A stretch of DNA of 64,000 bases from contig OY762210.1 of NCBI GenBank assembly GCA_963665255.1, forward strand, positions 130,866 to 194,865, read 5' to 3'. The DNA is from Dehalococcoidia bacterium. Its GTDB lineage: Bacteria; Chloroflexota; Dehalococcoidia; Lucifugimonadales; UBA1123. The notes under the pieces are model-generated. The model ran no database searches, was not told where the DNA came from, and saw only the letters and a program-made list of their open reading frames with translations. This document shows, in pieces, positions 6,883-58,733 of the stretch (position 1 is the stretch's first letter; each line of letters opens with the position of its first letter). Position numbers and translations under genes: made by a program.

Positions 6883-7668
6883 TTACCCGCTGGTGAAGAT
6901 CTCGTTGGCGAGGTCCATTGCGCCGCGCGCGAACGGTATGCCGGCGTAGAGCGTCATGTGGCCGAACACCTCGATGACCTGGTCCTGCGTGAACCCGATG
7001 TTCAGCGCGGCCCTGATGTGGCTCCGCAGCGGACCCTCGCGTCCCAGCGCGGCTAGGCACGCCATGGTGCAGATGCAGCGGCTGGCGAGATCGAGCCCCG
7101 GTCGGGTCCAGGTCGCGCCCCAGTAGTACTCTCCGGTGATCTGACCCAGCTCCCTCTCAGCCTGTGTCGGCTGGTTCGCGCGTGTGGGCGAAGTGGTGCC
7201 CATGTAGCGCTGCCGTAGCTCCTCGCCGCGCTGGAACAGGCTGTCGGGATCTTCGTTGGTGTCGTGGACGCGCGACGGCGTGAAGTCTATCCCCCGCTCC
7301 TCGAAGACCTCCTTGCAGATCGTCAGCGCCTGGATGCCCGCCGGCGCTGCACCGTACCAGGTGTCGTGAATGATCAGCTCCACTAGCTGCTCGGGGGTCA
7401 GTCCGACGTTCAGGGCGTTGCCCAGGTGTCGCTTGAGCTGCACCTCGCGGTTCATGACGATGAGGCACGACAGCGTGATCATCTCCCGCTGAACCGGCGT
7501 CAACGCGGGCCGCCTCCAGATGTCGCCGAACAGCGCCTCGCCGAGAATTCTCTCCAGGTCCGGCGCAAGCTCCCATGCTGCCGGCGCCGACCCGCTGGAG
7601 ATCTGTCCGCCGCCGAACATCCTCCGAGTCTCCTGCCCTCGTTCGTAGCGGTCGTCCAGTTCACTCAT
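6883..7668 (-). CDS. Carboxymuconolactone decarboxylase (CMD/AhpD-like) family protein, two CMD repeats
   Basis: 261 aa. Two copies of the CMD pattern (…RPALTPVQREMITLSCLIVMNREVQLKRHLGNALNVGLTPEQLVELI… and …RPGLDLASRCICTMACLAALGREGPLRSHIRAALNIGFTQDQVIEVF…). Confidence 0.85.
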   Translation of the reverse strand: MSELDDRYERGQETRRMFGGGQISSGSAPAAWELAPDLERILGEALFGDIWRRPALTPVQREMITLSCLIVMNREVQLKRHLGNALNVGLTPEQLVELIIHDTWYGAAPAGIQALTICKEVFEERGIDFTPSRVHDTNEDPDSLFQRGEELRQRYMGTTSPTRANQPTQAERELGQITGEYYWGATWTRPGLDLASRCICTMACLAALGREGPLRSHIRAALNIGFTQDQVIEVFGHMTLYAGIPFARGAMDLANEIFTSG

Positions 7669-7831
7669 AGTGCGCCTCCGTGGTGTGTGTGCCGGGATTC
7701 CAGTCGCCGACAGTGTACGGGGGCATCAGTGTGGGGGCAATTGTTCCAGACCAGGGTGGACGGCATGTTCTGCTAGCTGGCTTCGTCAGTGCAAGGGAAT
7801 CAGTGGCCAGGATGGGAAGACGTGGCAGTTC

Positions 7832-8581
7832 TTACTCCCCCCGCAGGCGCCGGAGTTCAGCCTCCAGTTCTTGCACACGAGACTCGGCGGCTTCTGCGCG
7901 GGTGCGTTCCTCTTCTGCACGGGTGCGTTCCTCTTCAGCACGGGTGTGCTCCTCTTCGGCACGTTCCCGCTCCTCTTTTCGCCTGAGTAGCCAGCGTTCT
8001 GCAACTGGGTCCCAGAATCGCAGGTCATCCTCCGACCACCAGATGTCCAGATTCAGAGCCTCGCTATGTGACCACACCCGACCATCGGACTCGTGCCGAA
8101 GCTCGAACCTGTGATACTCGCCGTCCCGAAGGTATTCGCCTACAAGTGGCTCGCCATAGAACTCACCGCCCGTCGCATCGTAGCGCCAGTATTCGGACAC
8201 GCCAAGCTCCGCGTAAAGGTCACGCTTGCGACCCAGATCGACGTTGGCTGTGCTGGGAGAACCTATCTCCAGTACGAAGTCCGGTGCCTTGCCAACTTCC
8301 CATAGCAGGTATGTGTTGTTCCCCTCCAGCGACAGTGAATGCAGCGCTGTCTCCGACAGCCCAAAGACCACGTAGCAGTCGGGAGAGACCAAGCGTCGGG
8401 GATTGCCTTCGACGTAGTAGATGAACGTGTTCCCGTTGACATTTGCGTCCTGAACGTCTCGGAAGTGGTCTTCGAGGTCACCCACTATCCTGCGATAAAG
8501 AGGCGCTTGGTACTCTCCGTCTGGCAATGGCATACCGTCCGATTCAGGATAGACAATGGCAGTGGAGGCTCGGGTGGTCAT
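7832..8581 (-). CDS. Uma2-family (DUF820) endonuclease with C-terminal coiled-coil repeat tail
   Basis: 249 aa. YPESDGMPLPDGEYQ...SPDCYVVFG...PDFVLEIGSPST...KRDLYAELGVSEYWRYD is the PD-(D/E)xK Uma2 pattern. The tail reads RAEEEHTRAEEERTRAEEERTRAE...ELRRLRGE. Confidence 0.85.
   Translation of the reverse strand: MTTRASTAIVYPESDGMPLPDGEYQAPLYRRIVGDLEDHFRDVQDANVNGNTFIYYVEGNPRRLVSPDCYVVFGLSETALHSLSLEGNNTYLLWEVGKAPDFVLEIGSPSTANVDLGRKRDLYAELGVSEYWRYDATGGEFYGEPLVGEYLRDGEYHRFELRHESDGRVWSHSEALNLDIWWSEDDLRFWDPVAERWLLRRKEERERAEEEHTRAEEERTRAEEERTRAEAAESRVQELEAELRRLRGE
7896..7979. repeat. 21-bp tandem repeat, about 4 units, inside the Uma2 gene
   Basis: Units gcgcgggtgcgttcctcttct / gcacgggtgcgttcctcttca / gcacgggtgtgctcctcttcg / gcacgttcccgctcctctttt. 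They encode the (RAEEE[HR]T)n tail. Confidence 0.8.
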
Positions 8582-45869: not shown

Positions 45870-45922
45870 GTAGGGGTAGGTTTGCTTCGCCAGCCGCTTT
45901 GCGGGTGTAAACCTGCCCCTAC
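45870..45922. repeat. 53-bp palindromic REP (long form)
   Basis: gtaggggtaggtttgcttcgccagccgctttgcgggtgtaaacctgcccctac. Its terminal CTA (45919-45921) is the TAG stop of the M28 paralogue 2 gene. Confidence 0.85.
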
Positions 45923-47367
45923 TCAGCCAGCGAATCCAGCATGGCGATTCCGATCTCGGCGGCGTAGCCGATGAGGTCGGGGTTGATGTGGTCGATGGTG
46001 TCTTCCGGGGAGTTGATGCGTGAGAGGTCGTTGGACGACAGGAACAACACGGGTATGCCGACCTCTGCGAACGGTGCGTGATCGCTCGACGCCCCTCTGG
46101 TGCCCTCCAGGGCGATGGGAGCGCCGAGGTCCTTGCCGATCTCGATGGCTTTGGACACGAGGTCGAAGTCGCCAATCGCATTGAGCGTGTTCCCCGATCC
46201 CAGCGCGTCGAAGTTCAGCATGACGATGGTGCTGTCTATCTCCACTTGGCTCATATTGTCGACGTAGTGCTCGCTGCCGAGTAGTCCGTATTCCTCTGCT
46301 CCGAACAGGACGATTCTGATGTCGAAGGGGTAGTCTCGTTCCGCAATGTGCCGGGCCACGGTCATCAGCGCAGAAACGCCCGAGCCGTTGTCGCTCGCGC
46401 CTTGTGTGTCCTCAACCGTGTCGTAGTGTGCGCCAAGGATGACCTGCCGCCGCGGTTCGTCGTCCGCTCTCTTGCGCATGGTCGCCACGACGTTCTGGGA
46501 CACTGCCGCGTATTTCATATTGGCGTTAAGGGTTGCCGATACTCTTTCGTCCTGTTCGATGAGTCGCAGCACCGTGCGGACATCTGCGGGGCTAAGCCAG
46601 AACACCGGGATGGTAGGGCGGTAGGTAAAAGGGATCAGGATGTCGTCAAGTTCCGCGCTGGTGACTATCGCACCCGGCGCACCTGCCTCTGCGACACGGT
46701 CGATCTGTTCACGGAAAGTAGTAGCGCCAATTTCTATGAGTGGAACCATGCCTGCCAGTCCGTCGTCAGGGATGTCCTCCTCGCGCGCGTCTCCCACATC
46801 CGTCACCAGGCCCGTCGAGGAGTCGTTCTCCTCCAAAATTACCGGCACCGGATTCACATGGAACTCTTCGGTGTTCAATATCGGCTCCCCCTCACCTGAG
46901 GTCAGGTTTAGTTCGGGGATGAAGAACCGAGGAGTGTTGAACTCCTGGAGCAAGGTCTCATAGCCAAGTGATTCGAGGTTCTTTTGAAGGTACAGAGCCG
47001 CCTCCACCTCCTCGTCGGTTATGCTCTCACGAGGACTGTACTGCGTGGTCAGCGTACTCAGTACGGCGTATGCCTCGTCCGCCAGGACGCTGGGCTCCGG
47101 TGTGGGCAGGACCAGCGCCGCGCCAGGCGTCGGGGTGGGACGTGGCGCCGGAGGCCACTGCTGTGCAACCGTCGCCTGGGCTGTCGGTGAAGGGACGCTC
47201 GCCGCTGTGGGCTCGTTCGCTAGTGCAGGTGTGTCCACCGGAGTGGGGCTGCTCACCGGCGCGGGGTCGCTGCACGCAGCAAGGACGAACGTCGCAGAGA
47301 TGACGATCAGCAGGACACTGGTCGCGCTGGAGATCAGGGTACTGTTCGGCTTGGCAAGACGTTTCAT
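45919..47367 (-). CDS. M28-family aminopeptidase with PA domain, lipoprotein (paralogue 2)
   Basis: 482 aa. Lipobox LAACS. ILGAHYDTV...GASDNGSG...FGAEEYGLLGS...SSDHAPF. Confidence 0.85.
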   Translation of the reverse strand: MKRLAKPNSTLISSATSVLLIVISATFVLAACSDPAPVSSPTPVDTPALANEPTAASVPSPTAQATVAQQWPPAPRPTPTPGAALVLPTPEPSVLADEAYAVLSTLTTQYSPRESITDEEVEAALYLQKNLESLGYETLLQEFNTPRFFIPELNLTSGEGEPILNTEEFHVNPVPVILEENDSSTGLVTDVGDAREEDIPDDGLAGMVPLIEIGATTFREQIDRVAEAGAPGAIVTSAELDDILIPFTYRPTIPVFWLSPADVRTVLRLIEQDERVSATLNANMKYAAVSQNVVATMRKRADDEPRRQVILGAHYDTVEDTQGASDNGSGVSALMTVARHIAERDYPFDIRIVLFGAEEYGLLGSEHYVDNMSQVEIDSTIVMLNFDALGSGNTLNAIGDFDLVSKAIEIGKDLGAPIALEGTRGASSDHAPFAEVGIPVLFLSSNDLSRINSPEDTIDHINPDLIGYAAEIGIAMLDSLAE

Positions 47368-47427
47368 GTATTGCCCCTTCTGTTTAAGTATTGCATGCCC
47401 GTGAACAGCGTGGTTGCCGATTACGAT

Positions 47428-47480
47428 GTAGGGGCAGGTTTGCTTCGCCAGCCGCTTTGCGGGTGCGAAACCTGCCCTAC
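47428..47480. repeat. 53-bp palindromic REP (long form)
   Basis: gtaggggcaggtttgcttcgccagccgctttgcgggtgcgaaacctgccctac. It overlaps the stop codon (47477-47479) of M28 paralogue 3. Confidence 0.85.
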
Positions 47481-48847
47481 CGTGGTTCGTTCGCCAACTG
47501 ATCCAGCATTGCGATGGCGATCTCGGCGGCGTAGCCGATGAGGTCGGGGTTGATGTGCTCGATGGTGTCTTCAGGTGAGTTGATGCGGGAGGTGTCGTTG
47601 GACGACAGGAACATCGTCGGGATGCCGGCCTCTTCGAATGGTGCGTGGTCGCTTGTCTCCTTGCCTCCCGCTGCCAAAGTGATGGGTGCCCCTAACTCCT
47701 TTCCGGCCTCAATGGCGTCCGAGGTGAGGTCGGAGTCGCCGGTCACATGGATCGTCGAACCTGATCCCAACGCGTCGAAGTTCAGCATGGCGATGGTGTC
47801 GTCGATCTCCTCACGGCTCATGGTTTCGACGTATTGCTTGCTGCCGAGCATTCCTGTCTTCTGTGCTCCGAACAGGACGATCTGGATGTCGAATGGATAG
47901 TCTCGTTCTGCGATGTGCGTGGCGACGGTTAGCAGTGCGGCCACTCCCGAGCCGTTGTCGCTGGCACCCTGTGAATTGGCCAGCGTGTCGTAGTGTGCTC
48001 CAAGGATCACCCGCCGCCGCGGGTTCTCTGCGGGTCCAGACTTGTTCGCGACCACGTTCCACAACGACCCTTGCGTCATGTCGACCTTGATGGATGCGGT
48101 CACGTCCCCCCGATCGATCAGTTCCAGCAGTGCGTTGCCCTTACCCGTACCTATGGAGACCACCGGTGTGCCTGAAGAAGCGCGAAAGGTATTGTCAATG
48201 TATGTGGTAGCGGAGGTTCTCGTGGCTTCCACGAAGGCCGCCACGGTGGCGTCGTCTTGGTCGAACAGGAGTATCGCTCCCACCGCGCCGGCCTTCTCGG
48301 CACGCTGGATCAGCTCATACATTGCCATCGGATCGGGCGTTATCATTCCATCGTCTGTGATCGGGGCGAGCTCAATCAGCGCGATCCTGCCTTCGAGTTC
48401 CCGATTCAGGATGTCCGACAGGGATAAGTCACCAAAGGGAGTCACCAGTCCGGTGGTGTAGCCACTCGGCGGGCTGACAGGTGGGCCATCGTGCAGATGC
48501 GGTCTGATAGGGTCCAGTGAGGCCCCGCCCTCGCCGGATTCCAGGGGTGGGTCCGCATAGAACATGTAGGTGGAATCGTGGGTGTAGCTAGTGCCGAATT
48601 GCTCAATGGAAGTGTCGTAGCCAATATCATCGAGCCTGTCTCGAAGGTGCAGCGCCGCGCGGGTCTCCAGCACGGCCCCGGCATTTCGTGGACTGTATTG
48701 CGTGGTTAACGCATCCAGAATGGCGTAGGCCTCGTCTGCCAGCGCACTGGGCTCCGGTGCGGGTTCGCTGCACGCGGTGAGGACGACTGCGGCAGATGCG
48801 GCGGTCAGCAGGAGCAGAGTGGGGAGAGCCTTAGACAGAAGCTTCAT
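47477..48847 (-). CDS. M28-family aminopeptidase with PA domain, lipoprotein (paralogue 3)
   Basis: ATG at 48847 gives MKLLSKALPTLLLLTAASAAVVLTACSEP... ILGAHYDTL...GASDNGSG...FGAQKTGMLGS...TSDHAPF. The ORF track start at 49291 runs through the REP and the neighbouring gene. Confidence 0.85.
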   Translation of the reverse strand: MKLLSKALPTLLLLTAASAAVVLTACSEPAPEPSALADEAYAILDALTTQYSPRNAGAVLETRAALHLRDRLDDIGYDTSIEQFGTSYTHDSTYMFYADPPLESGEGGASLDPIRPHLHDGPPVSPPSGYTTGLVTPFGDLSLSDILNRELEGRIALIELAPITDDGMITPDPMAMYELIQRAEKAGAVGAILLFDQDDATVAAFVEATRTSATTYIDNTFRASSGTPVVSIGTGKGNALLELIDRGDVTASIKVDMTQGSLWNVVANKSGPAENPRRRVILGAHYDTLANSQGASDNGSGVAALLTVATHIAERDYPFDIQIVLFGAQKTGMLGSKQYVETMSREEIDDTIAMLNFDALGSGSTIHVTGDSDLTSDAIEAGKELGAPITLAAGGKETSDHAPFEEAGIPTMFLSSNDTSRINSPEDTIEHINPDLIGYAAEIAIAMLDQLANEPR

Positions 48848-48870
48848 GGTGTGAGGATACAACCTTGCAT

Positions 48871-48924
48871 GTAGGGGCAGGTTTGCTTCGCCAGCCGCTT
48901 TGCGGGTGCTAAACCTGCCCCTAC
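48871..48924. repeat. 54-bp palindromic REP (long form)
   Basis: gtaggggcaggtttgcttcgccagccgctttgcgggtgctaaacctgcccctac. It overlaps the stop codon (48921-48923) of M28 paralogue 4. Confidence 0.85.
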
Positions 48925-50408
48925 CGCTCAGCAAGCGAGTCCAGCATGGCGATGGCGATCTCGGCGGCGTAGCCGAGCAGGTCGGCGTTGATGTGCTCGA
49001 TGGTGTCTTCAGGTGAGTTGATGCGGGAGATGTCGTTGGACGACATGAACATCGTCGGGATTCCGGCATCTTCGAACGGTGAGTGGTCGCTTGTCGACAG
49101 TCCGCCGCCTTGGAGTAAGATCGGCGCGCCGAGGTCCATCCCCAGATCTCTGGCTTCGAACGGGGAGTGATCGCTTGTCGCAGGTCCGCCGCCTTGGAGT
49201 AAGACCGGCGCGCCGAGGTCCGTCCCCAGCTTTCTGGCCTTGGACGTGAGGTCGTAGTCGCCAATGACGTGAAGCGTGGTCCCCGAGCCAAGCGCGTCGA
49301 AGTTCAGCATCGCGATCGTGCTGTCTATCTCCTGCTGGCTCATGTTATCCACGTAGTACCGGCTGCCGAACAGTCCTTCCTCTTCTGCTCCGAACAGGAC
49401 GATTCGCATGTCGAATGGGTAGTCTCGTTCTGCGATGTGCCTTGCGACGGTCATCAGAGCAGCCACTCCCGACCCGTTGTCGTTCGCGCCCTGCGTATTG
49501 GCCGCCGTGTCGTAGTGTGCGCCGAGTATGACGCTGCGGTCTGTTTCCTCAGTTCCACCCAGGTGCGCCACCACGTTCCACAACGGCCGCTTCATTACAT
49601 CGACCCTGATGGATGCGGTCACTTCCCCCCGTTCGATCAGCTCCATCAGCGCGTTGCCCTTGCCCCTGCCGATGGAGACCACCGTTATGATCCGTGGGTC
49701 TGGCGGCGTGCTGAATGGGTCCATATCCTTCGTAGTGGGAACGGTTATGTCGTCCTCCGCTTCGGTGTCCTCCATGTCGACGATGATTATCGCGCCAATC
49801 GCGCCTGCCCTCGTGACACGTCTGAGCGTCTCGTCGCTTGACTTCGCACCGGGCACTATCAGCGCGATCCTGCCCGCAAGACCCCGCTTCGGTATGTCCA
49901 TCCGGGATGTGTCTCCGACAGGAGTCAGAATCCCGGTGACGAAACCTGCAGGCGGGCTGAATGAGGGGCCATGACTTAGGAGCGGCCCGATGGGCTCCAG
50001 TATGGCCTCGTCCACACCGGACTCCAGGGGCGTGTCGGTATGGAACATGTAGCTGGAGCGGAAGGTGTAGCTGTCGCCGAATTCCTGGAGGGAGGTCTCG
50101 TAGCCACTGGCACTGAGCCTGCCCTGGAGGCTCAGTGCCGTCTCCATCTCATGGTCGGACCCGATCTCACGCGGGCTGTACTGCGTGGTCAGCACATCCA
50201 GAAGGGCGTAAGCCTCGTCCGCCAGATCGCTCGGCTCCGGCGCGGTCAGGGTCAGCGTCCCACCGGGCGTGGGGGTGGGTCGTACAGCGGTAGGCCACTG
50301 CTCCGCAGGCGACTGAGCCGTCGGAGCGGGGTCGCTGCATGCGGCGAAGATGGCGGTCGCTCCAGCCAGAGCTAGCGCGACGTACAGGACTTGTCTAATC
50401 GCTGTCAT
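48921..50408 (-). CDS. M28-family aminopeptidase with PA domain, lipoprotein (paralogue 4) carrying an internal 28-codon duplication
   Basis: 495 aa. Lipobox IFAACS. ILGAHYDTA...GANDNGSG...FGAEEEGLFGS..., then the SDHSPFE motif occurs twice. Confidence 0.85.
   Translation of the reverse strand: MTAIRQVLYVALALAGATAIFAACSDPAPTAQSPAEQWPTAVRPTPTPGGTLTLTAPEPSDLADEAYALLDVLTTQYSPREIGSDHEMETALSLQGRLSASGYETSLQEFGDSYTFRSSYMFHTDTPLESGVDEAILEPIGPLLSHGPSFSPPAGFVTGILTPVGDTSRMDIPKRGLAGRIALIVPGAKSSDETLRRVTRAGAIGAIIIVDMEDTEAEDDITVPTTKDMDPFSTPPDPRIITVVSIGRGKGNALMELIERGEVTASIRVDVMKRPLWNVVAHLGGTEETDRSVILGAHYDTAANTQGANDNGSGVAALMTVARHIAERDYPFDMRIVLFGAEEEGLFGSRYYVDNMSQQEIDSTIAMLNFDALGSGTTLHVIGDYDLTSKARKLGTDLGAPVLLQGGGPATSDHSPFEARDLGMDLGAPILLQGGGLSTSDHSPFEDAGIPTMFMSSNDISRINSPEDTIEHINADLLGYAAEIAIAMLDSLAER
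49071..49238. repeat. 84-bp tandem duplication (2 units) inside M28 paralogue 4
   Basis: Units 49071-49154 and 49155-49238 are nearly identical. They encode RKLGTDLGAPVLLQGGGPATSDHSPFEA and RDLGMDLGAPILLQGGGLSTSDHSPFED. Confidence 0.9.
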
Positions 50409-50806: not shown

Positions 50807-51391
50807 TTATCGACGCCGACTGTTCTGTCGCCGGTCACGCTCACGTGCCGCTCTCTTATTGGCCCCTGTCACGGCGAGACGCCATCTGAGCATATCTTCG
50901 CTGATGCCAAACCGTTCAAGGGCTTGCCATTCGGTAAGCTGTCCCCTGGCGACGGCCAGAGCCATGTCGTCGGTTACGAGCAGCACGCCGCCAACCCAGG
51001 CAGCTTCCGCTTCATTCGTGTCATTCCAATTGCGGCAGCCCGTCAGTCTATTCAGTGCAGGAGCAGGTTCATGAAGAAGAAGACCATGTGCCAATTCATG
51101 AGCCAAGTTGCTGTTCTGGCGTTTCGGAGAGTGTGAGTCGTTGTGAACGATCATTCTACGATGACGGTCGAATACGGTTAGGGCGGAGAAGGCCTCCCGA
51201 CCCACAGTCAGGAAGTGCCTGGCTCCGTCCAAGCCTTTCGGCAGGTCCCTGAGAGTCATAACTGGAATCGCGAGGTGACAGGCTAGTCGATGGGGGTCGA
51301 GACGGTCCAGCTTTGCCAGTCCAAGCTCAGCTCTGACTTCCTTCACCAGCGCTTCGGCTTCGGTCTTGAATCCGCGTCGCAGTTTTGCCAT
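50807..51391 (-). CDS. ImmA/IrrE-family zinc metallopeptidase (CapP-like)
   Basis: 194 aa. HExxH in NLAHELAHGLLLHEP. The start abuts the stop of the upstream XRE gene with 0-nt spacing. Confidence 0.8.
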   Translation of the reverse strand: MAKLRRGFKTEAEALVKEVRAELGLAKLDRLDPHRLACHLAIPVMTLRDLPKGLDGARHFLTVGREAFSALTVFDRHRRMIVHNDSHSPKRQNSNLAHELAHGLLLHEPAPALNRLTGCRNWNDTNEAEAAWVGGVLLVTDDMALAVARGQLTEWQALERFGISEDMLRWRLAVTGANKRAARERDRRQNSRRR

Positions 51392-51751
51392 TTAGTCTGA
51401 GATTCTGAGCCTTTCGTATGTCGCCCTAACCACCTCGTCGAGTGCTGCCGCACCCTCCGGTGTGAGGTTCTTGTCCGCTCTGAGATGAGTTGAGATCATA
51501 GCCAATGGCTCACGCTCACCTTGTCGCGACGCCGAGCGCACGAAGTCGTCAGCCCTAATCCCTGACCATGACGACAGCGCGGCTAGGCCGTCGACATCGG
51601 GACGTTTGCCCTGCGCCATGCGAGTGAGGGTCGACGCGCTTACGCCGGTCTCATTGGCGACCTGTTTCCAACTCAATTTCCTGGCCTGCCTGGTAGCGTT
51701 AAGGGCGTCGTAGAATCCCTCGTTGTCGAATGTGCCGTATTTCTCTGCCAT
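51392..51751 (-). CDS. XRE-family HTH transcriptional regulator (CapH/ImmR-like)
   Basis: ATG at 51751 behind GGAGGG. ...RQARKLSWKQVANETGVSASTLTRMAQGKRPDVDGLAALSSW is a Cro/C1-type HTH. Confidence 0.8.
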   Translation of the reverse strand: MAEKYGTFDNEGFYDALNATRQARKLSWKQVANETGVSASTLTRMAQGKRPDVDGLAALSSWSGIRADDFVRSASRQGEREPLAMISTHLRADKNLTPEGAAALDEVVRATYERLRISD

Positions 51752-51766
51752 CTTGCCCTCCAACGA

Positions 51767-51795
51767 TTGCACTTTCGCAATTCCATGTCTATAAT
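51767..51795 (+). promoter_or_regulatory. Near-consensus sigma70 promoter for the Ubl operon, embedded in CGCAAT repeat (operator-like) sequence
   Basis: TTGCAC (51767-51772), 17-nt spacer, TATAAT (51790-51795). The inverted repeat ATTGCactttcGCAAT overlaps the -35 box. Three more CGCAAT copies lie at 51808-51835. Confidence 0.55.
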
Positions 51796-51844
51796 AGAAT
51801 TCGCGGATCGCAATCATGCGCCGCAATCGCAATATATAGAAGGG

Positions 51845-52129
51845 ATGTTACCACACATGACTACGACAGCAACCCGGCAGTCGGAGGATAAGCCCGAGCA
51901 GAAGTTCCAGGTGGAGGTCAACCGTAAACCAGTTGATGTTGACGGTCCGCTGACAACAGGGCTGGCAATCAAGGAAGCAGCTATTGAGCAGGGAGTCCCC
52001 ATTGGGCTCGATTTTCAACTCGCGAAGGTTGACTCCGAAGGCAAGCACATTATCGTCGGCGACACGGACAAGGTGGACGTGAGCGAGTTCAAGACCTTCT
52101 TCGCCACTCGTGGCGACGACAATTCGTAG
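51845..52129 (+). CDS. Ubiquitin-like beta-grasp protein ('multiubiquitin'-type single domain)
   Basis: KFQVEVNRKPVDVDGPLTTGLAIKEAAIEQGVPIGLDFQLAKVDSEGKHIIVGDTDKVDVSEFKTFFATRGDDNS fits the pattern of Ubls encoded with prokaryotic E2/E1/JAB genes. Alternative ATG at 51857. The ORF track start at 51767 lies within the promoter. Confidence 0.6.
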   Translation: MLPHMTTTATRQSEDKPEQKFQVEVNRKPVDVDGPLTTGLAIKEAAIEQGVPIGLDFQLAKVDSEGKHIIVGDTDKVDVSEFKTFFATRGDDNS

Positions 52130-52145
52130 GCAGGGAACTCTCTTG

Positions 52146-52526
52146 ATGACACCTCAAGTTGAACAGGCTGTTGAGGAACTTCGGAACTGCTTCAGAGGTT
52201 CAGAGGTCATATCCAAGGATATTGGTGATGGAGGTGCGTTTGTCACAATCGACCCCGTCCATCTCTGTTCGGTGTATACGCCGCGAGAGACTTGGATGAA
52301 ATTCCAGATTGGCTTCCATTATCCGAAGGCAGACATCTATCCGCTGTTTATCTCCTGCGACGTCAAACGCTCTGATGGTCAGCCTTACGGGGAAGGCATA
52401 GTCAGAACGACATTTAATGGGGAGCCAGCCTTGCAGATTTCCAGGAGCAGTAATCACCTTAATCCGGACATCGACACCGCAGTGCTCAAAGTCACCAAGG
52501 TAATTCAATGGCTCAACGAGCAGTAG
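52146..52526 (+). CDS. Prokaryotic E2/UBC-like protein
   Basis: About 126 aa. ...WMKFQIGFHYPKADIYPLFISCDVKRSDGQPYGEG...ALQISRSSNHLNPDIDTAVLKVTKVIQWL resembles the UBC-fold 'YP..P.F' core. ATG lies 17 nt after the Ubl stop, behind AGGGA. Alternative GTG at 52110. Confidence 0.55.
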   Translation: MTPQVEQAVEELRNCFRGSEVISKDIGDGGAFVTIDPVHLCSVYTPRETWMKFQIGFHYPKADIYPLFISCDVKRSDGQPYGEGIVRTTFNGEPALQISRSSNHLNPDIDTAVLKVTKVIQWLNEQ

Positions 52527-53953
52527 AAGCGCCCGTCAGCCTCCGACTGCCAGTGGAGATGGCCTCAATGCTCACATCACATCTCTTTCCCGGTGATGAG
52601 GATGAGCACGGTGCCGTTGTCGGTGCCGCAGTGCTGGAAACGAGCCGGGGGTATCGACTGCTGGGCCGTCGACTCTTCCTGGCCGAAGATGGGATTGACT
52701 ACGTACCCAGCCAACACGGTTACCGGATGCTCACACCGGAATTCGTCCTTCGCTGTACCCTCGCTTGTTCAGAAGAAGGACTAGCCTACCTGGCCGTGCA
52801 CAATCACCTGGGAGATGACAAGGTTAGTTTCTCTGACACTGACATGGAATCGCACCGCAAGGGATATCCGGCACTGATAGACATTCTTGATGGCGCTCCC
52901 GCCGGAGCGCTCGTTTTTGCGCGGCGAGCCGTTGCTGGCGACGTTTGGGTATCAGCTGATCGGCAGTTGGAATTAGACTACGCTGTCATTGCTGGACGAT
53001 CCCAAAGACAACGCTACCCATCACCCCGAAAGCCTGTGGGCGCTGATGCACAATACGACCGACAAGTCCGTCTGTTTGGAGACCGGGGACAAGAGATTCT
53101 TGCTGCTCAGAAGGTCGCAATCGTAGGAGTGGGCGGGGCCGGTTCCCTGATCAACGAGCATTTAGCCCGCCTTGGTGTCGGACACATCATCGCCGTTGAC
53201 GATGACCGCCTGGATGGCACCAATAGTCCGAGAATTGTGGGAGCACGTGTCAGCGACCTGAGGCCGTGGTACCGTTTTCGACCTCTCGCTCGACTGTTGG
53301 GCTGGCAGCCCTCTCCGAAAGTGAGCATTGCCAAGCGGGTGGCAAGAGAAGCCAACCCTGGCACTCGTTATGAGGCCATAATGGGCAACGTGGTGGACCA
53401 GCGGGTGGTGAAGCGACTTCTAGACTGTGATGCCATATTCCTGGCCGCCGACAGCATGCAGGCGCGCCTTGTAGTCAACGCGATCTGTCATCAGTACCTC
53501 ATTCCGACCTGGCAAGTAGGGGCCAAGGTGGACAGCGATCCCGCAGGAGGAATACAGGATGTGTTCTCGGTGGTTCGACAGCTCGTCCCCGGGAAGACCT
53601 GTCTGTGGTGTAACGGCCTCATAAACTCTACTCGACTGGCGGAAGAGGCAGCGTCAGCACAGCAACGAGACGCGCAGCGCTACGTTGACGACGTGCCTGC
53701 TCCAAGTGTAATCACACTCAATGCCGTAGCCTCCGCCCACGCAGTGGACCAGTATCTCTTCTCAACTCTGGAACTGCAAGATACGCCCGAGGACATCCAC
53801 TGGCTGAAGTATCGGTCCGCCGACCCCTATCAGCCTTATGTCACGGTCGAAGTGCCCCGAAGCGATTCTGGCTGTTCGGAATGTCAGAGACGAATGGGGG
53901 CAGGCGACCTTATGTCGTTACCTGTGCGAGCAACTGAATCAGTTCTCCGGTAG
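52508..53953 (+). CDS. JAB/JAMM peptidase domain fused to ThiF/E1-like adenylating enzyme
   Basis: 481 aa. N-terminal JAMM elements are GDEDEHGAVVGA and HNHLGDDKVSFSDTD. The E1 Rossmann motif is QKVAIVGVGGAGSLINEHLARLGVGHIIAVDDDRLDGTNSPR. Zinc cysteines are CLWC and CSEC. The start overlaps the E2 gene by 19 nt. Confidence 0.8.
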   Translation: MAQRAVEAPVSLRLPVEMASMLTSHLFPGDEDEHGAVVGAAVLETSRGYRLLGRRLFLAEDGIDYVPSQHGYRMLTPEFVLRCTLACSEEGLAYLAVHNHLGDDKVSFSDTDMESHRKGYPALIDILDGAPAGALVFARRAVAGDVWVSADRQLELDYAVIAGRSQRQRYPSPRKPVGADAQYDRQVRLFGDRGQEILAAQKVAIVGVGGAGSLINEHLARLGVGHIIAVDDDRLDGTNSPRIVGARVSDLRPWYRFRPLARLLGWQPSPKVSIAKRVAREANPGTRYEAIMGNVVDQRVVKRLLDCDAIFLAADSMQARLVVNAICHQYLIPTWQVGAKVDSDPAGGIQDVFSVVRQLVPGKTCLWCNGLINSTRLAEEAASAQQRDAQRYVDDVPAPSVITLNAVASAHAVDQYLFSTLELQDTPEDIHWLKYRSADPYQPYVTVEVPRSDSGCSECQRRMGAGDLMSLPVRATESVLR

Positions 53954-53964
53954 GCATAGCCATA

Positions 53965-54351
53965 TCAGTCCTGTCGACCTCGGCTTGCCAATGGTTCTCG
54001 AAGCAGCGTCTCGGCGTCTATGCCGAGATGCTTGTGCAGCGCCCTGGCTATAGACATGGTGATGTCCTCCTGTCGGGACATGACTGCTGTGACTTTGGCC
54101 AAGCTGCCGATGTAGGGGACCAGGTCATGGAGGGTCAGCCCTCGCTGATCCATCTCGAACTCAATGGACGCTATGGGGTCAGAAGGCGGCCCGATGGGAT
54201 AGTGCCTGTCCTCGTAACATTCAATCAAGTCAGCGAGGATGTCTCGCTCGTCGCCTTCAGGAGTGCCAATCTTGGCCTGAAATATTTCGCTGAGTCTGGT
54301 CAGCGCGGCGTCGTAGTCTTCTTCGGTACGGATCGGGTTTACGCTGACCAT
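53965..54351 (-). CDS. HigA2-type antitoxin (HTH)
   Basis: 128 aa. MVSVNPIRTEEDYDAALTRLSEIF...ERDILADLIECYEDRHYPIG...QRGLTLHDLVPYIGSLAKVTAVMSRQEDITMSIARALHKHLG. Confidence 0.75.
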   Translation of the reverse strand: MVSVNPIRTEEDYDAALTRLSEIFQAKIGTPEGDERDILADLIECYEDRHYPIGPPSDPIASIEFEMDQRGLTLHDLVPYIGSLAKVTAVMSRQEDITMSIARALHKHLGIDAETLLREPLASRGRQD

Positions 54352-54353
54352 AT

Positions 54354-54647
54354 CTATACCTCCTCCACGTTTACAAGGTCGTATTCGGCATGGGTGCCTA
54401 TGAACCGTATGTACACATGACGGCCCGGATAGAAAATCTCGACCACCAACCGGTACTGGTTACCTTTTATTCTAAACACCACCCGATTTCTGCCGACAAT
54501 GCTAACCCGAGGCCACTGCCGCGTTACTTGGGTGGGTGTACCCCAGTCCGCTCGCCGGACTTCTCTGTACCAGTGCTCCAGTGGCTCCCGTGCGTCTGGA
54601 TGGCGTTCCCAGAACTCCCGCAGTGTTCGTTTGGCGATGACCCTCAT
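54354..54647 (-). CDS. HigB2-type mRNA interferase toxin
   Basis: 97 aa. MRVIAKRTLREFWERHPDAREPLEHWYREVRRADW...NRVVFRIKGNQYRLVVEIFYPGRHVYIRFIGTHAEYD. Confidence 0.8.
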   Translation of the reverse strand: MRVIAKRTLREFWERHPDAREPLEHWYREVRRADWGTPTQVTRQWPRVSIVGRNRVVFRIKGNQYRLVVEIFYPGRHVYIRFIGTHAEYDLVNVEEV

Positions 54648-54826
54648 ACTGGCTCATTGTACCCAAACCCCAGCCGGATCAGATTCGCTTCGATCTCGGC
54701 ATCGAGTCGCCGCGCCTCGGCCTGCTGATCACTCCACTCACCCACCAGACCGGCCATCTTCTTCCCGCGCATGGCGTCCGCCATCTGCCAGAGCTGCGTC
54801 TCGTAGCCGGTTTGAGCGGTGGTCAA
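54644..54826 (-). pseudogene. Possible collapsed remnant of a type I R-M methylase (hsdM-like N-terminus joined to a C-terminal tail)
   Basis: 60 aa. TGYETQLWQMADAMRG resembles the HsdM N-terminus (LW..AD.LRG). ...RRLDAEIEANLIRLGFGY resembles the C-terminal ends of HsdM/HsdS proteins. The methyltransferase body is absent. Confidence 0.3.
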
Positions 54827-57505: not shown

Positions 57506-57853
57506 CTACGCTTGCGAGATGCGCCAGTGGCCGGGACCGACTTGCACCATTTGCAATGAGTGCACCCTGCATATCGCACGAAATCGGGCAGAGTGGTTAG
57601 CTGACGTATTGGTGAGGTGGATAACAGGCGTGTCTTCGCTGCCCGGCGCCGCGTTGTCTTTAATCACATGCAGGAGCTCATCGAAGAACGATGGTGTGAC
57701 TGTCGCCATATCTGCCAGATCGATGGTCAGGCTGGTGCCCCCATTGTCGTGGGACAAGAAGGTGCTGACCATTGGGGCCAATTCGCGTGCCGTCTCCCGG
57801 GAGGAGAGCACCCGGCGTTTCTTGGTGTTGTAAAGACTGAGCACCGATTCCAT
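57506..57853 (-). CDS. STAS-like (DUF4325-type) small protein
   Basis: 115 aa. ...TSLTIDLADMATVTPSFFDELLHVI... matches the STAS-like DUF4325 core as I recall it. Lies 10 nt downstream of the GHKL gene. Confidence 0.5.
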   Translation of the reverse strand: MESVLSLYNTKKRRVLSSRETARELAPMVSTFLSHDNGGTSLTIDLADMATVTPSFFDELLHVIKDNAAPGSEDTPVIHLTNTSANHSARFRAICRVHSLQMVQVGPGHWRISQA

Positions 57854-57863
57854 GTCAAACGCC

Positions 57864-58733
57864 CTAAGCCGGTATGTTTACAGATGCCAGAGTGCCAGGG
57901 AACAGATTAGCCGATCTTGGGGAAGGTATTTTAGTCCTGCCGTCATAGTGAAGGAACGCACTGCCTGAACTGATATTCAATTCTCGGTTGGGTGGAAGGA
58001 CCAACTCAACAATGTGAGCTAGTCCCAGTCCCCGCGTGTTTCCGTGGACACTGATGTTTTCTACGAGGGCGTACTCTATTGCCTGCCAGTCGCTTTGTAC
58101 ACTTCCCGCGTGATCAGGATTCTTGAGGAGTGATGCCCTGATGCCAATCCCTCCATCAGCAATTGCACACACGAATCTTAGGTGCCCTTCAAAGGCATAG
58201 TGCTGTACGTATCCATATGCGTCGATTGGAGAGTCGGCATGTTCAACTGCATTGTTGGCCAATTCGCCGAAAACCATGTTGACGTGTTCATACACGTTCG
58301 CAGAGCTGACGTTGCTACTCATCAGGTTTTCGACTATTGCCTCTCCCAAGTCTTCAACCTGTGACATTGTAGTCAATCGTGTAAGTGGGAGCATAAGGTG
58401 ACCTTGCTGCGGCGTTGGCATACCCAAATTGTCGACCTTAATGCCAGCGTTCAGCAGAGTCTCAAACATTCCGAGTCGATTGAGATATGACGTGACTCCA
58501 ATGTCGTATGGAACCACCATCTCACAAGGAATGCCCCTCTCGGCGACTAGCAATGGATAGACCGTGCACCACAGCACTCCTGCCGGGCGAACGAACGTGC
58601 AGCGGCTTAAGTCGATTCTGACCGAGTCCCAAGGAAAGTCGTCACGACGCGGGTCGTTTATGGGGACCTGATACCCGAGCAGGTCCCCGGTGTGGTTAAA
58701 CTGGGCCTGGGCGCTGATCTCCAGCGTAGCCAT
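57864..58733 (-). CDS. GHKL-superfamily ATPase (RsbW/SpoIIAB-like anti-sigma kinase fold) with STAS-like N-terminal region
   Basis: 289 aa. N-box VFGELANNAVEH, G1 box ADGGIGI, G2 box GNTRGLGL. The N-terminal ...VRIDLSRCTFVRPAGVLW... looks STAS-like. Confidence 0.7.
   Translation of the reverse strand: MATLEISAQAQFNHTGDLLGYQVPINDPRRDDFPWDSVRIDLSRCTFVRPAGVLWCTVYPLLVAERGIPCEMVVPYDIGVTSYLNRLGMFETLLNAGIKVDNLGMPTPQQGHLMLPLTRLTTMSQVEDLGEAIVENLMSSNVSSANVYEHVNMVFGELANNAVEHADSPIDAYGYVQHYAFEGHLRFVCAIADGGIGIRASLLKNPDHAGSVQSDWQAIEYALVENISVHGNTRGLGLAHIVELVLPPNRELNISSGSAFLHYDGRTKIPSPRSANLFPGTLASVNIPA

Follow-up and report, generated by a model that had tools for sequence, protein, structure and literature searches.

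The window analysed here is a stretch of 64,000 nt from contig OY762210.1 of a Dehalococcoidia bacterium, and this report concerns a five-gene module at positions 50807-53953 that resembles the Bub operons, the name given by Ye, Gong, Chambers & Corbett in 2024 to the former "6E/DUF6527" operons (PMC11601596; structures 9ea4, 9ea8 and 9eae). Three forward-strand genes specify a ubiquitin-like protein (Ubl), an E2-like protein and a protein in which a JAB domain is fused to an E1 adenylation domain (JAB-E1), while an XRE-type regulator and an ImmA/IrrE-like peptidase are transcribed divergently. The six-frame list of open reading frames (ORFs) agreed with the gene positions of the initial annotation, and the starts of the XRE, Ubl and E2 genes were refined from homologue lengths and from the gene calls in a close relative, giving the following layout.

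50807-51391, reverse strand: ImmA/IrrE-like (CapP-like) peptidase gene, 194 aa
51392-51751, reverse strand: XRE (CapH-like) gene, 119 aa; the ORF extends to 51832, start revised to the ATG at 51751
51752-51856: divergent control region, 105 nt
51857-52129, forward strand: Ubl (BubA-like) gene, 90 aa; the ORF runs from 51767, start revised to the ATG at 51857
52146-52526, forward strand: E2-like (BubB-like) gene, 126 aa; the ORF runs from 52110, start revised to the ATG at 52146
52508-53953, forward strand: JAB-E1 (BubCD-like) gene, 481 aa

At 119 aa the XRE protein has the length of all of its homologues, and a Shine-Dalgarno sequence (AAGGGA, 51840-51845) lies 11 nt upstream of the Ubl ATG. 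The tight packing described in the initial annotation was borne out: the XRE stop adjoins the ImmA start with zero gap, and the E2 and E1 genes overlap by 19 nt (52508-52526), an overlap that recurs in most related loci. The motifs EDEHGAVVGA, HNHLGDDKVSFSDTD, VGVGGAGS, AVDDD, CLWC, CSEC and HELAH were all found in the translations, and the segment is indeed AT-richer than its surroundings, with a GC content of 0.51-0.58 over 50.5-54.5 kb against 0.59-0.66 in the flanks. In genome annotation the E2 gene at present goes by "hypothetical protein". We also considered whether the split between the Ubl and E2 genes might be a frameshift artefact; this was ruled out, as there is an own start codon with Shine-Dalgarno-compatible spacing and the split is conserved across phyla.

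The best PDB match of the JAB-E1 protein was Citrobacter BubCD (E=3e-22), with the alignment spanning residues 13-427 and both domains; the N-terminal 175 residues alone matched only BubCD in the same database (E=2.7e-4). Pfam assigned the ThiF family to the protein (3e-27), and the Pfam Prok-JAB model gave no match to the JAB region even at E<=10. Because the family is too diverged for the Pfam Prok-JAB and Prok-E2_E models, evidence from the PDB, from HHalign and from predicted folds was used instead. The JAB domain (approximately residues 13-165) carries E33, H98-x-H100, S109 and D112. The E1 domain (approximately residues 180-470) carries GxGxxG at 207-212, R242, a crossover-loop tyrosine (Y392) and a zinc motif made up of C365xxC368 and C456xxC459. 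All of these residues are invariant in 15 homologues. The JAMM residues and R242 align with the catalytic E/HxH/S..D motifs and the adenylation arginine of Citrobacter BubCD, and Y392 aligns with its Y370 and with the tyrosine of four plasmid BubCDs. The only cysteines near the crossover loop are those of the CxxC zinc motif. The PADLOC E1-E2 (Cap2) models matched only the Rossmann part of the E1 domain. A deposited protein identical to this one (P0001, 461 aa) starts at Met21. Homologues of 472-478 aa conserve the 20 residues upstream, with L12 and L14 invariant, which favours the 481-aa start inside the E2 gene as the correct one.

For the E2-like protein the Pfam Prok-E2_E match (E=0.026) lay below the cutoff, and single-sequence phmmer searches of the E2 and of the Ubl against the PDB returned chance matches only, such as hedgehog and LRC2. 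A profile of 27 E2 sequences from the clade formed by this locus and its relatives (described below), run against the whole PDB, had Citrobacter BubB as its sole match (E=0.009), and HHalign aligned the E2 with canonical BubB at 96.6% probability (E=6.9e-10). The AlphaFold2 (AF2) model, at a predicted local distance difference test score (pLDDT) of 88, shows a UBC/RWD fold that has diverged; in Foldseek BubB (9eae_C, E=3.2e-5, template modelling score 0.68) was the one significant match, followed by the Cap2 E2 domain in second place, UEV and UbcH7. In the HHalign alignment Ser99-Arg100 (LQISRSSN) corresponds to the catalytic Ser-Arg of canonical WSRH. Ser99 is invariant in the 27 sequences, the Ser99-Arg100 pair is invariant across phyla, and no conserved cysteine was found in the 27-sequence clade alignment. 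The clade active site reads L-Q-L-S-R-R, against Q-x-W-S-R-H in the canonical proteins: the position of the canonical histidine is occupied by arginine in most members (SRRS, 41 representatives), by serine in the window (SRSS) and by histidine in one (SRHS). The nearby Asp63 is nearly invariant and is a candidate counterpart of BubB D299. In BubB itself, H335 was mutated jointly with S333 in the loss-of-function mutant (PMC11601596).

The Ubl matched Pfam Multi_ubiq above the gathering cutoff (6.2e-6). It consists of a disordered N-terminus of about 15 aa, a single beta-grasp domain and a tail that ends ...FFATRGDDNS-COOH. The top Foldseek matches of its AF2 model (pLDDT 77) were the bacterial multi-ubiquitin proteins 8u38, 9cd2 and 9d5b together with BubA (9ea8_B, 155-229), and HHalign aligned it with canonical BubA at 92% probability (E=6.6e-7). 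The Ubl clade profile did not recover BubA from the PDB by sequence, so that this relationship was recovered by Foldseek and HHalign only. With these results the placement proposed in the initial annotation, namely a beta-grasp Ubl, a UBC-like E2 and a JAB-E1 of Bub type, is backed by Pfam, PDB sequence searches, AF2 with Foldseek, and HHalign. Both the beta-grasp and the UBC fold were supported, and the E1 grouped with BubCD and not with MoeB/ThiF, the best score against the NCBIfam ThiF/MoeB equivalogs being 64 bits against a cutoff of 275.

The tail of the Ubl had been described as a C-terminal extension in which DDNS follows a glycine. This was a misreading: DDNS is the conserved C-terminal tail of the family. 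It is present in 66 of 71 homologues, 61 of which stop exactly at the serine while five carry an extension of 5-6 aa; four others end in DDNA, and one is a truncated fragment that lacks the motif. None of the 71 ends in glycine. The general pattern is ...A-x-x-D-D-N-S, with G, S, P, A, D, H or R preceding DDNS. Fused Ubl-E2 forms of the same E2 family (about 10 of 150 E2 representatives) have DDNS exactly at the junction, and Ubls with two or three domains (loci L033 and L038) have it on the last domain only. In canonical plasmid homologues the Ubl finishes in ...DQTEG, whether a stop codon or a fusion junction follows. The 5-6 residues that follow beta5 match this canonical tail; in the HHalign alignment the tails extend three residues past the shared aspartate here and four there. 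Cleavage after the glycine (TRG/DDNS) was considered and ruled out, since the glycine position is variable, the remaining tail would be too short to reach the adenylation site, and conservation is higher in DDNS than elsewhere in the tail.

A scan of GTDB species genomes yielded 36 related loci from at least six phyla, spread over Dehalococcoidia/SAR202, Caldilineaceae, Acidimicrobiia (including Ca. Poriferisodalis), Myxococcota, Armatimonadota, Dormibacterota and Solirubrobacterales. The order Ubl, E2, JAB-E1 was found in 32 of them, with separate ORFs in 31, and this recurrence shows that the trio is more than a chance association. Searches of plasmids with tblastn returned two tiers. The upper one (40-53% identity) included Mycolicibacterium chubuense, Rhizobium ruizarguesonis, Nostoc, Mesorhizobium, Rhodococcus and Deinococcus, and the three plasmids inspected (Mycolicibacterium, Rhizobium and Nostoc) have the same three-gene layout. 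Of four plasmid hits inspected in the lower one (26-30%), those in Pontibacter, Methylocystis and Abditibacteriota are canonical Type I Bub systems with DUF6527, while no DUF6527 was found for the remaining one, Mesorhizobium NZP2077. E1 identity is 37-52% within the clade, 40-49% within canonical Bub and 21-28% between the two. Relative to canonical BubCD the clade E1 proteins have the additional CxxC...CxxC zinc motif, a crossover loop six residues shorter and an insertion of about 18 residues.

All Bub operons are stated to possess bubE, which encodes a DUF6527 Ser-His protease (PMC11601596). Using two DUF6527 proteins as tblastn queries, we located BubE just downstream of E1 in the canonical loci L041, L042 and L044 (E<=1e-16), and the same search was negative for the window and for every clade locus. 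DUF6527 was likewise not among the matches listed in a Pfam scan of 145 flanking ORFs (25 of 38 families listed, the remainder single-member). Clustering of the flanking ORFs revealed no conserved fourth gene; it returned antisense-ORF noise, a few loci with Type I restriction-modification (R-M) genes, and a single membrane protein confined to one lineage. On these sequence comparisons the locus belongs to a distinct sister clade of Type I Bub, of the "6e"/Bub kind, without BubE.

Several clade members depart from the common layout. In four Ca. Poriferisodalis and Acidimicrobiia metagenome-assembled genomes (MAGs; L023-L026, approximately 7360-7950) the E1 stop is the site of a conserved ORF of about 173-209 aa, which starts right after the stop in L023 and L024 and, as called, overlaps the E1 end in L025 and L026. 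Its product has predicted transmembrane helices and an extremely arginine-rich tail, and could be a lineage-specific fourth component. L030 and L031 have an E1 relative (53% and 68% identity) with no detectable Ubl or E2 upstream within the 6 kb flank, and may have another organisation or be degraded. In L035 (3830-5500) an insert of about 1.7 kb separates the regulator pair from the Ubl gene; by eye it resembles an insertion sequence of the transposase type. The insert truncates the Ubl, and the E1 of this locus is split. In L012, L027 and L037, frameshifts or assembly errors have divided E1 into two to five ORFs.

The divergent XRE/ImmA pair reported in the initial annotation held up, since Pfam detected both M78 and helix-turn-helix (HTH) domains. 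The ImmA-like protein matched Peptidase_M78 (2.5e-14, the match ending at residue 172) and contains HExxH as HELAH. Its PADLOC match to capP (3.2e-6) was partial, covering profile positions 41-104 of 242, and its best PDB matches were IrrE orthologues (E=1.4e-3) around HELAH. Homologues measure 186-203 aa and, in nearly all cases, retain a cysteine 17 residues past HExxH (Cys119 here, in TGCR). No match to a GAF domain was obtained for the ImmA-like protein, which at 194 aa appears too short to contain one. By analogy with related pairs it is presumed to cleave the XRE repressor. The XRE protein matched Pfam HTH_31 (8e-8) and HTH_3 (3.9e-6) and, weakly, PADLOC capH (5.9e-3). A divergent XRE gene was found in 22 of the 36 related loci, 21 of them with an ImmA-like match (one weak and two fragmentary).

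In the control region a palindrome, ATTGC-N6-GCAAT (51766-51781), overlaps a -35-like TTGCAC (51767-51772), which is followed by a 17-nt spacer, a -10 sequence TATAAT (51790-51795) and, further downstream, more GCAAT half-sites. The combination of TTGCxx-17-TAnnnT, TTGC-N6-GCAA and a GCAAT just past the -10 is kept between the divergent genes of about 20 related loci. Visual inspection and comparison across loci revealed the palindrome; an automated inverted-repeat search of the intergenic region reported none, the arms being 5 nt and the gap 6 nt. The promoter scanner missed TTGCAC-17-TATAAT, in which the -35 matches at three of six positions. From its position and conservation, the palindrome is a candidate XRE operator.

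The closest relative is a Dehalococcoidia MAG (OZ220693; L001), in which flanks and module are collinear with the window at 83-89% nucleotide identity. Amino acid identity to this relative is 86-93% for the four non-E2 genes and 74% for E2, and the ratio of nonsynonymous to synonymous substitution rates (dN/dS) is 0.07 for XRE, 0.09 for Ubl, 0.14 for E1, 0.23 for ImmA and 0.35 for E2. All five genes are maintained and under purifying selection. In this single pairwise comparison E2 is the fastest-evolving gene of the module, which would be in keeping with a part in recognising targets. In 5-7 of the 36 loci a Type I R-M methylase or endonuclease gene is found no more than 3 kb away, and toxin-antitoxin (TA) genes, integrases and transposases also lie near some clade loci; the neighbourhood thus lends modest support to a defence or mobile context. 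No homologue was found in 50,697 phage records or by IMG/VR pattern scans. A stress-response or antiphage role of the module is suggested only by its context.

Downstream of the module, the HigBA pair and the hsdM remnant mentioned in the initial annotation were both recovered with Pfam and PADLOC.

53965-54351, reverse strand: HigA-like antitoxin (PADLOC); outside the system
54354-54647, reverse strand: HigB toxin (Pfam HigB_toxin 2.2e-28); outside the system
54644-54826, reverse strand: hsdM remnant, 60 aa (PADLOC); outside the system

The PADLOC matches among these neighbours were PD-Lambda-2_A (2.7e-39), PD-Lambda-2_B (4e-33, N-terminal third only) and MTase_I (3.6e-4). The remnant joins approximately the first 22 residues of HsdM (LWQMADAMRG) to what is apparently the HsdM C-terminal end (...NLIRLGFGY), and the 60-aa ORF appears to be an R-M deletion scar. 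In L014 and L029 an intact hsdM follows about 60 nt after the E1 stop. The TA cassette downstream of E1 is the only part that differs between the window and its closest relative (53965-54647 here, 11657-12436 in L001) and has been exchanged, with HigBA and the hsdM scar in the window and HicAB in OZ220693. A stretch of 209 nt from higA/higB (54295-54503) is matched at 90% in L001 just past hicA, a sequence match that suggests a HigBA remnant beyond hicA in that genome.

Further downstream, a gene pair on the reverse strand (57506-58733; GC lower, at 0.50-0.55) is conserved in L001 between gyrA and an MMPL gene. Its 289-aa protein has a GHKL ATPase domain (Pfam HATPase_c_2 7.9e-6, just under the cutoff) that also matches the N-terminal 250 positions of the PADLOC DrmA model (2.7e-11), and the second protein (115 aa) has no family match. 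The pair loosely recalls a CapK/CapS-like kinase with a small partner; no STAS or HTH domain was detected. On the other side of the module, also on the reverse strand, are three tandem paralogous PA-domain M28 peptidase genes (45919-50408) whose products have lipoprotein-like N-termini. The 604-aa M28 ORF (47477-49291) runs into the next gene, its 5' end probably being called too far out, and within the third paralogue (48921-50408) about 24 aa are duplicated in tandem (...DLGAPVLLQGGGPATSDHSPFEA / DLGAPILLQGGGLSTSDHSPFED...).

We consider it probable that the locus is a three-gene Ubl/E2/JAB-E1 conjugation module under an XRE/ImmA switch, belonging to a sister clade of Type I Bub and working along the lines set out here. 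Its basis in the present observations comprises the folds and families of the parts, the conservation of catalytic residues, the separation of the clade, the absence of BubE, the conservation of promoter and palindrome, and purifying selection. An XRE dimer bound to TTGC-N6-GCAA would cover the -35 and the spacer of the Ubl operon promoter and keep the operon off. As in CapH/CapP, ImmR/ImmA and DdrO/IrrE, a damage signal would activate the M78 protease, the XRE protein would be cleaved and the operon derepressed. Judging from homology and from the conserved residues, the E1 domain would then adenylate the carboxylate of the C-terminal serine of the Ubl (Ser94 as numbered). The Ubl would be passed as an oxyester from Tyr392 to Ser99 of the E2 and onward to target lysines, with no cysteine involved. 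Because most clade Ubls are made already ending at the serine, while BubE is absent and the JAB domain intact, JAB would serve mainly as a deconjugating isopeptidase; it may in addition trim the short extensions or the Ubl-E2 fusions of the minority members.

A bolder proposal, which we find plausible but advance tentatively, is that the clade is a third Bub class, with this locus as its type example: a minimal Ubl/E2/JAB-E1 system that activates a Ser/Ala-terminated Ubl and relays it through Tyr392 and a Ser-Arg E2, with neither the Type I histidine nor the Type II Lys-His, and with JAB replacing BubE as sole isopeptidase. If so, the rule that E1-activated Ubls end in glycine would be broken in a widespread natural system that extends over at least six phyla and plasmids.

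Several points weigh against the conjugation module as proposed. The clade is known here from sequences and predicted folds. The replacement of the E2 histidine (canonical H335) by arginine or serine means that the E2 chemistry may differ, or that the E2 may be only an adaptor. A serine or alanine C-terminus is a putative E1 substrate in this family, and the mature end of the Ubl is itself a prediction from the gene sequences. Since the ImmA-like protein apparently lacks a GAF domain, the inducing signal may not be single-stranded DNA (ssDNA). The 64-kb window contains two copies of the 14-nt palindrome pattern, a count that by itself is not significant, as two are reached in 16 of 100 shuffles; the operator argument is accordingly based on positional conservation across loci and not on rarity of the pattern in the window. 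Finally, the module is syntenic with that of the relative at 87% nucleotide identity, has housekeeping flanks and is not obviously a mobile island.

This last point also bears on function, for the same biochemistry might serve a general DNA-damage or stress response, or symbiosis-related proteostasis, instead of antiphage defence. We regard such a role as a real possibility, though less likely than not. The Bub authors reported no phage protection for any Bub operon (PMC11601596) and raised the possibility themselves, the module is shared vertically with the relative between housekeeping genes, the phage records and IMG/VR scans yielded no homologue, and the clade is enriched in MAGs with names that point to sponge symbionts. 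Set against this are the Type I R-M genes within 3 kb in 5-7 of 36 loci with TA modules, integrases and transposases nearby, the frequent location of the module on plasmids, a CapH/CapP-type switch typical of defence operons, and a lower GC content that suggests horizontal origin.

It is unlikely that the E2 is an inert RWD-like adaptor, as the 2006 analysis of Iyer et al. would have it, with the E1 transferring the Ubl directly from the adenylate or the tyrosine, or with MccB-like chemistry on the Asn-Ser end. The E2 has neither a conserved cysteine nor a conserved histidine and its Prok-E2_E match is below threshold, that analysis classed such domains as inactive, MccB is among the PDB relatives of the E1 domain (E ~4e-4), and the conserved Asn-Ser end is unusual. 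Against this, Ser99-Arg100 is invariant across phyla and aligns with the serine of BubB shown by experiment to be essential (PMC11601596); the translational coupling of E2 to E1 through the conserved 19-nt overlap and the conserved crossover-loop tyrosine also speak for an active E2 in the proposed relay.

Slightly less probable still is an ordinary Type I Bub working as the Citrobacter system does, with a Gly-terminal Ubl, a Ser-His E2 and BubE as deconjugase, the differences seen here being annotation or assembly noise. The architecture and the best matches (BubCD, BubB and BubA) would fit, CapH/CapP-like regulators are common in Bub, and a split Ubl and E2 also exists in a canonical system (Methylocystis). 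Yet the lack of DUF6527, of a glycine terminus and of a histidine by the catalytic serine is consistent over more than 30 loci and 71 Ubls, and the E1 is only 21-28% identical to canonical BubCD, with its own zinc motif and a shorter crossover loop. A sulfur-carrier or cofactor pair of the ThiF/ThiS or MoeB/MoaD type, at which the Pfam ThiF match, the weak NCBIfam ThiF/MoeB matches and a CxxC...CxxC zinc site as in MoeB/ThiF might hint, is effectively refuted by NCBIfam scores far under the cutoffs, by BubCD with its fused JAB as best relative, by the coupled E2 gene, by a Ubl without a Gly-Gly end, by XRE/ImmA control, and by the lack of a rhodanese domain and of nearby thiamine or molybdenum cofactor genes, the neighbours being peptidases, TA genes and an MMPL transporter.

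Apart from Bub pathways, no ubiquitin-like cascade is known to work without cysteine. The clade offers a natural experiment on a minimal version of them, in which BubE is dispensed with, the Ubl end is changed from glycine to serine and the E2 site is altered, while the tyrosine and serine relay residues are kept. As the catalogue of 544 Bub operons was seeded from operons with DUF6527 (PMC11601603), its design would have excluded this clade, and present numbers for Bub-like systems are probably underestimates. Experiments on the clade are made feasible by its plasmid homologues in culturable Rhizobium, Mycolicibacterium and Nostoc.

Among known systems, the bacterial E1/E2/JAB conjugation machineries of Bil and of Cap2-Cap3 in CBASS (an antiphage signalling system based on cyclic oligonucleotides) are related in kind. 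In Bil (Type I/II) JAB has a gene of its own, the E1 consists of two domains, among them a catalytic Cys domain, and the E2 is of the Cys type, whereas here a single adenylation domain is fused to JAB and both E1 and E2 lack a catalytic cysteine; Cap2 differs in being an E2-E1 fusion that conjugates CD-NTase. The regulators resemble CapH+CapP, described by Lau et al. 2022 (bioRxiv 10.1101/2022.04.27.489752) and Calloji et al. 2026 (PMC13228613) and related to ImmR/ImmA and DdrO/IrrE. As there, a divergent HTH gene and, after it, an HExxH M78 gene stand upstream of the operon under control, a palindrome lies over the promoter, and a conserved cysteine follows HExxH, which from its position could act as a cysteine switch. 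CapP has three domains, namely peptidase, HTH-like linker and C-terminal GAF, with an ssDNA groove formed by GAF and peptidase. The 194-aa peptidase of this locus, with no GAF match and a basic C-terminal tail, appears closer to a minimal ImmA than to three-domain CapP/IrrE.

The conjugation genes correspond to operon type 6e of Iyer, Burroughs & Aravind 2006 (PMC1779556), which comprises one to three Ubl repeats, a Cys-less RWD-like E2 fused in some species only and classed as inactive, a JAB-E1 and a metal-binding protein Y. The three core domains, the one to three Ubl repeats and the separate or fused E2 are the same, whereas protein Y (now DUF6527/BubE) is missing in the clade, and the 2006 work did not split off a Ser-terminal clade. 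In the characterised Bub pathway oxyester intermediates were shown on a tyrosine of E1 and on a serine (with His and Asp) of E2, and the JAB domain cleaves BubAB after a conserved glycine (PMC11601596). Three features put forward as distinctive in the initial annotation are shared with it: the JAB-E1 fusion is the defining architecture of both Type I Bub and 6e (PMC11601596, PMC1779556), a single beta-grasp domain is found in 40% of Bub Ubls (Gong et al., PMC11601603), and CapH+CapP are carried by 31% of 544 Bub operons (PMC11601596). The real differences, which had been overlooked, are the missing BubE, the Ser/Ala terminus of the Ubl and the altered E2 active site. In the clade BubE/DUF6527 is lacking, the Ubl ends in DDNS (Ser/Ala) and not in ...TEG (Gly), and the histidine of the E2 S-x-H is replaced by arginine or serine; in place of the BubAB fusion, the window and 31 related loci encode Ubl and E2 in ORFs of their own that differ in frame. 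The module is thus less novel than first thought, yet has specific departures from characterised Bub. With Type I Bub (6E.1) it shares a JAB-E1 fusion with all JAMM and adenylation residues, a cascade without catalytic cysteine that keeps the crossover-loop tyrosine, a diverged UBC-fold E2 with an invariant Ser-Arg, a beta-grasp Ubl of the multi-ubiquitin type and, frequently, divergent HTH and M78 peptidase regulators.

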